Source: Escherichia coli (GTDB lineage: Bacteria > Pseudomonadota > Gammaproteobacteria > Enterobacterales > Enterobacteriaceae). Taken from it: a stretch of DNA of 59,578 nt. The DNA lies in NCBI RefSeq assembly GCF_003334255.1, contig NZ_QOWU01000030.1; one strand, written 5' to 3'. The stretch's first letter is position 1, and the number at the start of each line of letters is the position of its first letter. Both the position numbers and the translations under genes were made by a program. Shown here in pieces: positions 35,863-59,578 of this stretch. The notes under the pieces are model-generated. The model was given only the letters and a program-made list of their open reading frames with translations. It made no database searches and was not told the origin of the DNA.

Positions 35863-35968
35863 CCTTACATCAAAGCCACTGGTCAGGAGTGAGAACCCTG
35901 ACGGGTGTCATCGGGAAGGTGTAAGATGTCGTGAATGTCTCTCATGCCATCTCATTTTCTCGATTTAA

Positions 35969-35997
35969 GGAGCATGTTGGACGCATGCTCCTTTTCT
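35969..35997 (+). terminator. Hairpin terminator downstream of pheV
   Basis: ggagcatg…catgctcc stem followed by ttttctc. Confidence 0.5.
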
Positions 35998-36061
35998 CGA
36001 TCATTTATTATGCTTGCAAAGCTTTTTCAGGTTGTCAACAACGGCAAAACAAAGTCATGAT

Positions 36062-37057
36062 CTAAAATACATCAGTAAGTTCTGCCAGTTCTTTTTCAAG
36101 CACTCTTGCCGTCCCCTTCAAATCGATTTCCACATACTCCAGAGTGGTGGAAACATTCCTGTGCCCGAGCATGGTTTTCACCATATAAAGATTACGTTCC
36201 GGTGCACTCATCAGCGTACTGGCCAGCGTATGCCGAAAGCGATGAGGTGATACAGGGAAACCGCACTCTTTCGTCAGACGTCTGAAAAATCCTTTTACCG
36301 GTTGCAGTTCCGGAAGTCCGGTAACGAACGGTGCTTCTGACATCAATGCCACATAACGATGATAATGGAAAAGATAATCCTCAGGTCTTGCCCCCCGTTT
36401 CATCGCCTCATCAATCAAGTGCCTCATTCCCGGGACAAGATGACTGACCATAGGGATACGCCACTCATGGTGTGTCTTACTTCCCTCCGAACACAGATCA
36501 ATCCATCTTTCATCCGGATTAACATCCCGCAGACGCAGGTGAAGTAACTGATTTAGCCTCATCCCGGTAAAACGCAGCGTATTTACCACAATCATCCAGT
36601 ACCATGCCGGACGAATCGCACAACTACGCCAGTGCACACCACCAGAACGCTTCTCCTCTTCATGAAACTGTTCAAGAATCAGCAGAATTCGTTTTACCTG
36701 TTTCTTCGTCAGTGTTTTCTTACGTTTCTTTTCCTGTCTGACATTCATACCATCAAACGGATTCTCACTTAAATTAAGAAGTGTTGAGGAACATGCAAAA
36801 TTGAAAATGGCACGCATATGGCGAACCTTGTTATTCCATGTGTGCGTGGAGCGATTCTGTTTTTTCAGAACCTCTCGTTTCCATTCCCTCACATGCTGTT
36901 GCCGGATATCCTCCGGTAAAAGGGTCTCGCCAACAAACTTCCGGAATCCATTCAGAACCTTTAGGTAACTCCACTCCGTAGCCACTCTCACTGAACGGCA
37001 GAAAAAATATTCATCCATAAGCTCGTTCCAGCGCATGTCAGCATGACTTAATTTCAT
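36062..37057 (-). CDS. Tyrosine site-specific recombinase / island integrase, up to 331 aa
   Basis: Catalytic-domain motifs HRFRHTLAS and LGHRNVSTTLEYVEID (R…HxxR…Y); about 200 bp from tRNA-Phe 3' end; exact start among M1/M8/M14 unresolved. Confidence 0.85.
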   Translation of the reverse strand: MKLSHADMRWNELMDEYFFCRSVRVATEWSYLKVLNGFRKFVGETLLPEDIRQQHVREWKREVLKKQNRSTHTWNNKVRHMRAIFNFACSSTLLNLSENPFDGMNVRQEKKRKKTLTKKQVKRILLILEQFHEEEKRSGGVHWRSCAIRPAWYWMIVVNTLRFTGMRLNQLLHLRLRDVNPDERWIDLCSEGSKTHHEWRIPMVSHLVPGMRHLIDEAMKRGARPEDYLFHYHRYVALMSEAPFVTGLPELQPVKGFFRRLTKECGFPVSPHRFRHTLASTLMSAPERNLYMVKTMLGHRNVSTTLEYVEIDLKGTARVLEKELAELTDVF

Positions 37058-37099
37058 AATTAAACCCTTTACAAATAGGTTACATTTTTACCAAAATAC

Positions 37100-58072: not shown

Positions 58073-58339
58073 CAATGATAATCCTGATAGTCAACCAGAA
58101 TTGCGTCTTCGCCTTCAAATCGAAAGGTAATTCGCCAGTTACCGTTTACTGATATTTCCCAATGACCTCTAAGATCAGCTCCCTTTAGAGGGTGTAATTT
58201 CCACCCAGGTGCAGACAGACATATCGTCCGGGCGCTTAGCCATATTTAGGGCAGTTAATTGAATACGTAGTTTAACCGCATGTTTGGCCTGAATGCCTGC
58301 GGTTGAACCTGTCTCGAAAAAGTGTTCAAGCAATGCCAC
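58073..58339 (-). pseudogene. Decayed higB-like (RelE/ParE superfamily) toxin
   Basis: …LLEHFFETGSTAGIQAKHAVKLRIQLTALNMAKRPDDMSV then 1-nt frameshift then APGWKLHPLKGADLRGHWEISVNGNWRITFRFEGEDAILVDYQDYH*; no start codon; 5' end overlapped by the upstream 337-aa gene. Confidence 0.4.
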
Positions 58340-58341
58340 AA

Positions 58342-59355
58342 CTATTTGCGAAGATATTTTTTCTTGATACGGAACGCTGGGATAAAAAACGAAGCAACCA
58401 CGCCAGCCATGAAAGTGCTTATTCCCAGTGCAATCCTGGACAGGCTTCCCTCATCCAGTACCTCGTGGATGAACAACGCACCTAAACTCAGTAACATTGC
58501 GATCAGAATGAAGCGAACCAGCCCGGCCAGCGGCAGCTCAACCACATTGGTTTTGACATACATCTCCCCATCCTCTCTGCTGTTCTCATCACGATCCAGC
58601 GTATCCCTGACAGCTTGCATATCGATCACGGGTTTATGAAAGGTTGTGTCATCAGTGCAACACAGTTGATTAGCCAGGAGGTCCGGTATCGATGGCCATC
58701 CTGCTGGCCACTTACTTGGGAACTCTACCCCATAAGCGCACAAAAGTGGGAGCGCAAAGGCATAGTGAGTAACCTTCTGAACATAGCGATTATCAAGAAC
58801 GGCCCACACATCCAGCCCTCCGGCAGTATCCTGAACGTACACAGAGATTCGATTTGCTTCTGGGTAATCATGGGAATAAACCCGTGCGGGGATATATTCG
58901 ATACCGTGATGGCGGCAGAAGTTAACACGATTTTTACCTTCACTCGGGCAGAACAATCCCAACTGAGGAATGAAGGTATAGCTCGTACTTTTCAGCCCGT
59001 AATCAGAAAAAATGTGACGCCGTATATCGTGTTCATCTTTGTCGCTACAATAACGATCGGGCCACCAACGCCAGTTGCAGCCGAAGGTATGTAAGGTAGG
59101 AACCAACATTTCAGTTACTGAACAGGTTTCAAAATCTCGCGGGAAAAAAGGAATGATGCTGCAGAAAAATTCCAGCCCGCAATGCGGCCCCCATTCTCCT
59201 CCTGTCATCCTCCCATGCAGGTCAAGTGGTATCCCTGACGTACCGCCTCTTGCTGCCATATCGATACGAAACTTCAGGTCAACAAGCTCCCTGGCGGCAA
59301 CCCTCACCTGCTCTGGCAAAGACGATAAATCCGCATGTTTTAGCTTCTCATCCAT
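58342..59355 (-). CDS. Uncharacterised Cys/Trp/His-rich protein with two C-terminal TM helices, 337 aa
   Basis: Intact ORF; about 270-aa soluble N-terminal domain; C-terminal hydrophobic segments LVRFILIAMLLSLGALFI and IALGISTFMAGVVASFFIPAF. Confidence 0.55.
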   Translation of the reverse strand: MDEKLKHADLSSLPEQVRVAARELVDLKFRIDMAARGGTSGIPLDLHGRMTGGEWGPHCGLEFFCSIIPFFPRDFETCSVTEMLVPTLHTFGCNWRWWPDRYCSDKDEHDIRRHIFSDYGLKSTSYTFIPQLGLFCPSEGKNRVNFCRHHGIEYIPARVYSHDYPEANRISVYVQDTAGGLDVWAVLDNRYVQKVTHYAFALPLLCAYGVEFPSKWPAGWPSIPDLLANQLCCTDDTTFHKPVIDMQAVRDTLDRDENSREDGEMYVKTNVVELPLAGLVRFILIAMLLSLGALFIHEVLDEGSLSRIALGISTFMAGVVASFFIPAFRIKKKYLRK

Positions 59356-59389
59356 TCAGACAACGTCCTTGGTATGACGTTAGTTCTTA

Positions 59390-59578
59390 ATATTGGGCCC
59401 GGGCGGTACAGACGGTTTACGCGGTCGCCTGCGGCAACGGCTTTCCAGGTGACAGTAGCACGGAGCTTTACCCCCGGAGAACGCCGGCAAGCCCCATAAC
59501 TGCCATGAGACGTGCCACAGTGCATCTGGCCACTCTGATTCCTTCCCGTAACAACTGACGCCAGACTTTACGCACACC
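59390..59578 (-). mobile_element. IS3-family transposase fragment (orfB region), truncated and running off the window
   Basis: Minus-strand translation [36 protein letters not shown], typical of the IS3-family OrfB N-terminal region; in-frame stop and loss of homology near 59390. Confidence 0.45.

Follow-up and report, generated by a model that had tools for sequence, protein, structure and literature searches.

Insertion site and genes of the element

The window, by which we mean the whole stretch of Escherichia coli DNA analysed here (59,578 nucleotides), contains a tRNA-Phe(GAA) gene at 35787..35862 on the + strand, found by both ARAGORN and Rfam. It is 100% identical to K-12 pheV, and speC, yqgH and yqgA lie upstream of it, which is the pheV context. 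Positions 78..35863 of the window match positions 3074657..3110442 of K-12 MG1655 with 3 mismatches in 35,786 bases, and this alignment breaks off at 35863/35864, one base beyond the CCA end of the tRNA. Because the tRNA gene ends at 35862, the start of the inserted element at 35863 is exact. The K-12 yghD side was not found anywhere in the window.

The 49-bp 3' part of pheV (35814..35862, + strand) constitutes attL, which recurs at the element's other end in the nearest relative, the Shiga-toxin-producing strain STEC2018-553, where the same element, also at pheV, is 92,125 bp long and has 49-bp pheV 3'-end repeats at both ends. The attR of that strain is an exact 49-bp repeat (L002 45312..45360) followed by the K-12 post-pheV flank, its signature being the 49-bp GGGATTGAAAATCCCCGTGTCCTTGGTTCGATTCCGAGTCCGGGCACCA and then CTAATTCTTAAGAACCCGCC. 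IS1 activity is evident in the chromosome studied here (window 1-77), and an IS1 also adjoins attR in STEC2018-553. The insertion is of the kind made at tRNA ends by the family of integrative conjugative elements (ICEs) discussed below, with the tRNA left intact and the 49-bp duplication seen solely in the near-identical STEC2018-553. An approximate-match search, using 15-50 nt from the 3' end of the tRNA (at least 15 nt, with 1-6 substitutions allowed at most, by pattern length) found no second copy in the window, and therefore the island must extend past the window end. An Rfam scan of 35000-59578 gave no match other than the tRNA. The base composition shifts weakly at the boundary (G+C of 49.8% in the island vs 51.6% in the core), whereas the shift in tetranucleotide usage is clear, with L1 distances to the core of 0.26-0.32 for 5-kb windows of the island and 0.12-0.19 for core windows.

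An earlier note, made from this DNA alone, had placed a horizontally acquired element exactly at the pheV 3' end, continuing past the window and carrying content absent from K-12 at this site, and all of this is borne out; nothing in the island resembles the yghD side. The compositional shift which it proposed as a check is present in tetranucleotide usage and slight in G+C, and the att repeat which it proposed to look for exists in STEC2018-553, but not within the window.

Next to the tRNA lies a - strand operon of three genes. The first (38691..40199) encodes a 502-aa UvrD/Rep-family helicase with partial matches to NCBIfam UvrD/PcrA/Rep models, and the identical protein in STEC2018-553 is named by PGAP 'UvrD-helicase domain-containing protein'. 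This gene overlaps by 8 nt with traI (37100..38698), which encodes a 532-aa relaxase of the TraI/MobH family. The relaxase scores 177.6 bits against TIGR03760 ICE_TraI_Pfluor (curated cut-off 161.4), which places it in the PFGI-1 class, and it also matches MobH (4e-18) as well as TraI_2 and TraI_2_C of Pfam. An A8/A7 homopolymer at about 37119 alters only its final residues, and strain 2015C-3121, too, has the 532-aa frame in intact form according to its annotation. The last gene of the operon (36062..37057), reading towards the tRNA, encodes the ICE integrase (331 aa). This protein matches Pfam Phage_integrase (5.8e-18) and otherwise shows SAM-like N-terminal matches only; the P4-type arm-binding domain was absent from it in the Pfam search, and every match to the NCBIfam Xer-family models fell below cut-off. 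The catalytic motifs TGMR, HRFRH, LGH and the Y in TLEY are seen in the translation. Protein identity is 33.5% over 92% of the length (E = 3e-42) to the integrase of pKLC102, which adjoins mobH, and 29.8% (E = 3e-31) to that of ICEHin1056. Domain content and homology to these two integrases point to a Xer-like 'simple' tyrosine recombinase of the IntKX type, a group defined in PMC8138268 which includes the ICEEc2-type integrases.

A low-GC spacer of 1.27 kb separates this operon from a divergent one, and in it lies a small DUF1187-family gene (40737..40967, + strand; NF007283, 120 bits, cut-off 92). A search for oriT and excisionase identified none, with a hairpin at 40558-40606 as the single candidate.

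The divergent operon, pilL-M-N-O-P-Q-R-S-T-U-V (41467..51850, + strand; names from NCBIfam and PGAP), encodes a type IVb (thin, mating) pilus; it is complete from pilL to pilV, and PilN and PilP match their equivalog models above cut-off (TIGR02520, 408.8 bits, and TIGR03021, respectively). PilQ is a GspE-like ATPase, PilR is GspF-like, PilS is the pilin and PilT a lytic transglycosylase. PilV, PilL, PilM, PilO, PilU and two small ORFs matched no family in Pfam, PHROG or NCBIfam.

The operon leads into a shufflon (51499..52822) of two invertible segments, 51499-52245 and 52254-52822. A repeat search located its four 19-bp sfx sites, of sequence GTGCCAATCCGGTnnnTGG, at 51499-51517 (+), 52227-52245 (-), 52254-52272 (+) and 52804-52822 (-); they presumably agree with the R64 sfx consensus. 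Four alternative PilV C-termini, all open and in frame, are available (429, 442, 400 and 410 aa), and the present arrangement gives the 'A' form of 429 aa. Directly 3' of the shufflon, a gene with integrase-family matches (52885..54054, + strand) encodes an Rci-type shufflon recombinase, a tyrosine recombinase of 389 aa; its positional counterparts in an IncK2/Z plasmid and in the pheU ICE of APEC O2:K1 are 91-93% identical to it in nucleotide sequence. When two genomes, the window and STEC2018-553, were compared, both segments were found inverted between flanks which are 99.97-100% identical. Inverted sfx sites, alternative pilV 3' ends, a downstream rci and inversion between genomes together make this a shufflon of the R64 type. 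Behind rci follow two orphan I-type transfer genes on the + strand, a traE-like gene (55058-55879) and traF (55969-57171), recognised by TraE/TraF in relatives.

Cargo scars, relatives and recent movement

Beyond traF the window carries cargo, much of it damaged. At 57338..57652 (+ strand) protein comparison revealed what is left, the final 104 codons, of a gene for a SigA-type serine-protease autotransporter (SPATE); the 104 aa which it encodes match residues 1182-1285 of SigA in the SCU-106 ICE at 90.4% identity, and a SigA-type SPATE gene stands intact at the corresponding place in a related ICE. We also considered Ag43 as the identity of this remnant, and it was ruled out by the match to a SigA-type SPATE C-terminus and by the absent Flu similarity: the remnant showed none to K-12 Flu even at E <= 10, and blastn and blastp against K-12 CP4-44 flu gave no match. 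The higB/higA toxin-antitoxin genes (57782..58357, - strand) are pseudogenes, frameshifted and with an internal stop. Three-frame translation spreads their HigB- and HigA-like stretches over different frames, and PGAP flags them in a near-identical relative. A conserved 337-aa ORF with a C-terminal hydrophobic segment (58342..59355, - strand), likewise cargo, lies in a stretch 98.9% identical to the APEC pheU ICE and had no Pfam, PHROG or NCBIfam match. The last feature is a fragment annotated as an IS3-family transposase (59406..59578, - strand), which runs past the window end. The IS3-like sequence reaches 10 nt beyond the truncation point common to all 9 relatives, and its last 10-40 bases set the window apart from all relatives (2 mismatches in the final 40 nt); therefore, the distal content may differ from that of the relatives or be rearranged. 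A divergent ICE at pheU carries these three scars (SPATE, higBA and IS3) in identical order, and it follows that they are older than the arrival at pheV. To judge from this comparison, the SPATE tail, higBA pseudogenes and IS3 piece are old cargo-region scars which move with the element.

What may lie further on can be seen in STEC2018-553, whose copy carries a full SPI-7-type transfer and replication gene set. The backbone there includes ParA, an SPI-7-type DnaB, ParB, TopoIII, the STY4528 and STY4534 families, the ICE proteins TIGR03745-03759, TraD and TraG, and the cargo comprises type III and type I restriction-modification, an iha pseudogene, traT and toxin-antitoxin pairs. The type IV secretion and maintenance genes are thus observed in STEC2018-553 only, past the 23.7-kb arm present in the window, the visible arms being 99.97-100% identical. 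The island differs from that strain at 4 positions in 15.6 kb and at 2 in 6.8 kb, and 37 mismatches and 3 small gaps fall in the 3.2 kb of core next to it. Strain 2015C-3121 has a near-identical element at pheU (1 difference in 6.3 kb). Near-identical elements are known from different backgrounds, namely the K-12-like chromosome studied here, a Shiga-toxin-producing strain (at pheV) and a third strain (at pheU), and these copies, which sit at both tRNA genes and differ at about 0-4 positions, appear to document very recent spread.

We consider it highly probable that positions 35863-59578 belong to a single ICE of the pKLC102/PAGI-2/PAPI-1/SPI-7/ICEEc2 family, of which they form the tRNA-proximal arm, and that this ICE is inserted site-specifically at the pheV 3' end of a K-12-like chromosome. 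It might be argued that it is a decayed, immobile remnant, with the ICE transfer genes lost or broken in the source genome and the cargo inherited vertically. The pseudogenes and IS fragment at 57.3-59.6 kb would fit such a view, as would a window end in IS3-like sequence unlike all relatives and IS1 copies at window 1-77 and beside attR in STEC2018-553. However, all backbone ORFs in the window are intact, the same scars occur in full-length ICEs, the shufflon is intact and has switched between near-identical copies, and the occurrence of near-identical copies at both pheV and pheU, in backgrounds unrelated to one another, speaks for very recent mobility. A remnant thus seems improbable to us, though it deserves more weight than the other alternatives.

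One of these is a P4/CP4-type pheV island assembled by successive insertions from a pilus module plus pieces of Ag43 and higBA. On one hand, the GI-pheV islands described so far are mostly modular with a P4-type integrase, and intP4 is their one conserved gene (PMC11537424); the G+C of the island is patchy as well, at 0.42-0.58 per kb. On the other hand, a P4-type integrase is absent and the sole tRNA-adjacent recombinase is Xer-like, the autotransporter piece belongs to a SPATE and not to Ag43, a single att pair encloses the whole element in STEC2018-553 with no internal att copy, and the order of the scars is kept in an ICE at another tRNA gene. We find such an origin very hard to credit.

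This mosaic is close to what the earlier note had proposed. Its list of contents holds, since genes for a tyrosine recombinase, relaxase and helicase are there beside a pil operon, pseudogenes and part of an IS3-family element, and so does its R64/SPI-7-like pilus module, which we find to be type IVb pilL-V with a plasmid-like distal half. Among the remnants which it named, the higBA pseudogenes and the IS fragment stay, but the supposed Ag43 piece is a SigA-type SPATE tail. The CP4-type content has to be given up, since the integrase beside the tRNA is Xer-like and has no P4-type arm-binding domain, and 'successive insertions and decay' at pheV does not agree with one att pair round one 92-kb ICE and with scars common to a pheU ICE. 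Current understanding is unchanged by this; what is corrected is an annotation-level reading, a single SPI-7-type ICE taking the place of a CP4/Ag43 mosaic.

A plasmid-like block in the pilus region

Positions 46465 to 57171 form a bounded block of 10.7 kb, comprising the distal pil genes, the shufflon, rci and traE/F, with 88-97.5% nucleotide identity to the IncK2/Z plasmid. It is matched by 2,341 plasmid records, the shared genes including pilQ-V, the shufflon, rci, traE and traF. The identity steps at 46465, pilN-P being only 72-74% identical to that plasmid. At the other side traE/traF are 91% identical and the block ends at traF, after which the plasmid has traH, traI and traJ, absent after traF in the window.

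This similarity could be read as a chromosomally integrated conjugative plasmid of the I-complex (IncK/Z or IncI) in an Hfr-like cointegrate, an idea we can practically dismiss, given that the homology is a bounded patch flanked by the divergent pilN-P, that the rest of the MPF_I set is missing together with traH/I/J, that an ICE-type relaxase and integrase lie in the flank, and that the int-traI segment has 74 chromosomal nucleotide matches and 0 in plasmids. The pilus module is ICE backbone, not an admixture, and its distal half is probably of plasmid origin. The whole block, from the distal pilus genes through shufflon and rci to traE/F, probably came by recombination from an IncK/Z-like plasmid of the I-complex; the single feature that suggests exchange in the direction from plasmid to ICE is the orphan status of traE/F in the ICE.

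It is conceivable, although we hold it for the less probable case, that this lineage is a functional chimera: a G-type ICE with an IncK/Z-type distal pilus half, an active multi-inversion shufflon and a switchable recipient range, in which traE/traF may have been co-opted. Under such a scenario, an active shufflon of plasmid type would confer a plasmid-style, switchable range of recipients. Recent work shows that large chromosomal segments pass from one E. coli strain to another in an Hfr-like manner through ICEs at pheV and pheU (PMC13127887), and, if the lineage were such a chimera, this mobilisation would make it, in a K-12-like commensal background, a switchable vehicle by which one E. coli lineage could hand such segments to another.

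Expected mode of transfer and comparison with known systems

Going by what is known of the family, the integrase would recombine attL with attR to give an excised circle, TraI would nick an oriT and the helicase unwind the DNA, and the strand would be exported by a G-type type IV secretion system encoded past the window, with the thin pilus keeping mating pairs together. Rci-driven inversion would swap the PilV tip adhesin among its four C-termini and so change which recipients are recognised. In the recipient, the integrase would insert the circle into either tRNA-Phe gene, with the tRNA regenerated. The members of this family found at pheV and pheU disseminate cargo for virulence and resistance, and the present one shows that recipient-recognition modules are exchanged between ICEs and I-complex plasmids.

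The element is a further example of a known ICE family and of ordinary horizontal gene transfer. According to three reports (PMC11537424, PMC6761156, PMC13127887), ICEEc2-type ICEs integrate at pheU/pheV, transfer, and can also mobilise chromosomal DNA. ICEEc2 of E. coli BEN374 uses a Phe tRNA gene (pheU or pheV) as target and a type IV pilus operon for transfer; the element described here has the same kind of target and likewise a type IV pilus operon. Roche et al. in 2010 reportedly described three DNA-mobility genes in it, for an integrase, a relaxase and a helicase. Sequences were compared with the APEC O2:K1 pheU element as a proxy for ICEEc2. This proxy has the gene order of the window and about 91% nucleotide identity to it in the pil region, but protein identities of only 46.6% for the integrase and 47.7% for TraI; the window therefore represents an int/traI lineage of its own, directed at the same target.

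ICEs of the SPI-7 family, such as SPI-7 of S. Typhi, share with the window the tRNA-Phe target and the type IVb pil operon, pilV and rci included, and PGAP gives SPI-7-type names to DnaB, STY4528, STY4534, ParA/ParB and TIGR037xx ICE proteins in the STEC2018-553 copy. The Vi capsule and SopE phage carried as cargo by S. Typhi SPI-7 are found neither in the window nor in the STEC2018-553 element. We take SPI-7 to have a single invertible segment, against two segments and four sites in the window. pKLC102 of Pseudomonas aeruginosa and ICEHin1056 of Haemophilus influenzae have a homologous Xer-like integrase adjoining a MobH relaxase, as in the window, but the sequences are distant. PAPI-1, also of P. 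aeruginosa, is not known to have a shufflon. Transfer of PAPI-1 requires its type IVb pilus, the PilV of which binds recipient LPS (PMC5297154), and its target is tRNA-Lys, unlike the tRNA-Phe used here (PMC6761156).

The R64-type shufflon of I-complex plasmids (IncI1, IncK, IncB/O, IncZ) has inverted pairs of 19-bp sfx sites, rci downstream and alternating pilV 3' exons, just as the window does. In R64 itself it has four segments (Komano 1987, as cited in PMC8138268) vs two in the window, and the block described here differs from those plasmids in that it sits in a chromosomal ICE with a presumed G-type transfer system, accompanied, of the I-type transfer genes, by traE and traF only.

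The pheV junction and the K-12-like core

The junction of the insert can be read directly. The only tRNA gene that ARAGORN found in the window is tRNA-Phe(GAA) (pheV; 35787..35862, + strand), with which Rfam agreed, and its 5' neighbourhood contains speC, yqgH and yqgA, as expected for pheV. Across 35,786 bases, K-12 MG1655 3074657..3110442 and window 78..35863 differ by 3 SNPs (window 7699, 26004 and 29432); the alignment ended one base past the tRNA CCA end, while the yghD side, which follows pheV in K-12, was absent from the whole window. The start coordinate 35863 is thus exact, and the island lies at pheV, where the earlier note had put it. 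As 35.8 kb of MG1655 sequence carries only 3 SNPs, the host is, judging by this stretch, a very close K-12 relative, or else a derivative or transconjugant.

Queries of 15 to 50 nt, with mismatches allowed, found no second copy of the tRNA 3' end in the window; the insert therefore extends past the window end, and the proposed minimum size of 23.7 kb stands. The compositional shift suggested as a check was hardly visible in G+C (49.8% in the island versus 51.6% in the core), whereas tetranucleotide usage was clearly foreign to the core (L1 distance to the core average of 0.26-0.32 for island 5-kb windows versus 0.12-0.19 for core windows).

At the opposite end, window 1-77 is the tail (77 bases) of an IS1 element whose insertion point, K-12 coordinate 3074657, falls in the region of the yggC/fumE overlap; one pig isolate, CP8-3_Sichuan, has IS1 near the same site.

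The whole element in relatives

The window extends a quarter of the way into the presumed element, an integrative conjugative element (ICE). The same DNA lies at pheV in STEC2018-553 (NZ_CP075665.1), which differs from the window at four positions in 35863-51512 and two in 52803-59568; the 3.2 kb of core directly upstream has 37 mismatched positions and 3 small gaps. The full backbone and the att repeat are directly observed in this relative. The element continues with restriction-modification systems, toxin-antitoxin pairs, an iha pseudogene and traT, then with TraG, TraD and a series of TIGR03745-03759 'integrating conjugative element' proteins, and next with TopoIII, STY4528 and STY4534 families, ParB, a 'SPI-7-type island replicative DNA helicase' and ParA. 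Its far end is an exact 49-bp repeat of the pheV 3' end, after which the K-12 post-pheV sequence resumes; the element measures 92,125 bp and has a single attL/attR pair, with no att copy inside it.

In 2015C-3121 the same element sits at pheU, between dicD and tRNA-Phe, with one difference from the window in 6.3 kb compared, so that both Phe tRNA genes are found occupied. That two identical tRNA genes, in cores about 1% apart, carry near-identical copies indicates recent site-specific transfer of the element. Both genes are insertion hotspots for ICEEc2-type ICEs (PMC11537424, PMC6761156).

Beside the ICE of STEC2018-553 (L002 in our set, 45361-46467), IS1 abuts a truncated gspC/yghF gene 137 bp past attR, and a deletion has removed the type II secretion beta genes yghD and yghE and a portion of yghF; speC of this strain has an internal stop.

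A related ICE at pheU of an APEC O2:K1 strain (L005) shares only 46.6% (integrase) and 47.7% (relaxase) protein identity with the window. Phe tRNA genes are the target of both of these deeply divergent int/traI modules (window 36062-38698, L005 8424-11096; about 47% identity), and the pil operons linked to them are about 91% identical; ICE backbones of the pKLC102/SPI-7/ICEEc2 family thus recombine module by module.

Pilus operon, shufflon and cargo

The R64/SPI-7-like pilus module of the earlier note was confirmed as a complete type IVb operon, pilL to pilV (41467-51850, + strand), with ATPase, platform protein, pilin, transglycosylase and prepilin peptidase, and with PilN and PilP scoring over their equivalog cut-offs. 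Four 19-bp sites fitting GTGCCAATCCGGTnnnTGG (51499-51517, +; 52227-52245, -; 52254-52272, +; 52804-52822, -) delimit two shufflon segments, followed 3' by an Rci-type recombinase gene (52885-54054). Both segments were seen directly to be inverted in place relative to STEC2018-553, between flanks 99.97-100% identical. When constant pilV is read on into each segment in both orientations, all four joins stay open, with PilV forms of 429 aa (that of the window), 442 aa (the annotated length in STEC2018-553), 400 aa and 410 aa. The shufflon is thus structurally intact and has switched after the two copies diverged.

Two small ORFs separate the recombinase gene from traE-like and traF genes (55058-57171). 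From 46465, within pilQ, to 57171, the traF end, the window matches an IncK2/Z, MPF_I conjugative plasmid at 88-97.5% identity; for pilN, pilO and pilP the figure is just 72-74%. After traF the plasmid has traH, traI and traJ, whereas the ICE has an autotransporter remnant, so traE and traF are orphans in the ICE. On this evidence the block seems to have passed from plasmid to ICE, a direction that we infer, via recombination inside the pil operon.

The remnant is a decayed tail of 104 codons. Its reading as Ag43 was rejected: it has no similarity to K-12 Ag43 and matches, at 90.4% identity, the C-terminal 104 residues of a protease autotransporter of the SigA type, whose gene is intact after traF in the strain SCU-106 ICE. 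Further cargo comprises frameshifted, decayed higB/higA, a 337-aa ORF that Pfam and PHROG searches assigned to no family, and an IS3-family fragment reaching the window end. The APEC pheU ICE has the same order (traF, autotransporter tail, higA, higB, 337-aa ORF, IS3 fragment) despite its divergent integrase and relaxase; the scars belong to the ICE lineage and, contrary to what had been supposed, are no evidence for successive pheV insertions.

The stretch 58063-59568 (higB pseudogene end, 337-aa ORF, IS3 fragment) shares 98.9% identity with the APEC pheU ICE, versus 88-91% for its neighbours, and has either been unusually conserved or been exchanged lately. The final 40 nt (59540-59578) have two mismatches to STEC2018-553 after 6.7 kb without any, and the IS3-like sequence runs 10 nt beyond the truncation point common to 9/9 related ICEs. 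Here the element departs from its relatives, possibly entering a fuller IS copy; that would be a typical place for a contig to break. Since these last bases depart from all nine relatives, distal content in the source genome may differ.

Integration, DNA processing and proposed transfer

A UvrD-like helicase gene (38691-40199), a MobH relaxase gene (37100-38698) and a 331-aa tyrosine recombinase (integrase) gene (36062-37057), all on the - strand and overlapping or closely spaced, form one operon directed towards the tRNA. The relaxase matches MobH as well as Pfam TraI_2 and TraI_2_C, and its TIGR03760 score ('ICE relaxase, PFGI-1 class') of 177.6 bits exceeds the cut-off of 161.4. The integrase proved Xer-like, with no P4-type arm-binding domain in domain searches; against the CP4-type reading, the island has no P4/CP4-type integrase.

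A homopolymer at 37112-37119 differs in length (A8 in the window and 2015C-3121, A7 in STEC2018-553), so that the final 6-16 traI codons are read in different frames (532 aa versus 542 aa); lying past the TraI_2_C match, the change is probably harmless. Between attL and the integrase gene 3' end, a 17-nt inverted repeat (35960-36000) may be a candidate int terminator, or a binding site for the recombinase or an accessory factor. The helicase-traI-int and pil operons are separated by a 1.27 kb spacer with a DUF1187 gene; in its low-GC sequence, between the two operons, lies a hairpin (40558-40606) with a near-perfect 20-bp stem (CACAACCCGAAAACGCACTG ... CAGTGCGTTTCCGGTTGTG), a candidate regulatory site or oriT.

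The steps of transfer we infer from the ICE family. The integrase would recombine attL with attR, releasing a circle; TraI, assisted by the helicase, would nick a putative oriT, which was not located; a G-type secretion system coded past the window would transfer the strand, the thin pilus stabilising mating; and integration would regenerate the tRNA gene. Rci would alter the PilV tip, and PilV binds recipient lipopolysaccharide in PAPI-1 and R64 (PMC5297154).

Of modest interest are a host so close to K-12, a very recent spread, a shufflon that switches and a pilus block derived from a plasmid. The insertion itself is real and well bounded, belongs to a known ICE family, and its mechanism is ordinary. 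Its integrase is 29.8% identical to that of ICEHin1056; PAPI-1, ICESb2 and ICEEc2 integrases belong to the Xer-like IntKX subgroup (PMC8138268). With the pKLC102 integrase it shares 33.5% identity over 92% of its length, and in pKLC102, too, the integrase gene adjoins the mobH relaxase of the element.
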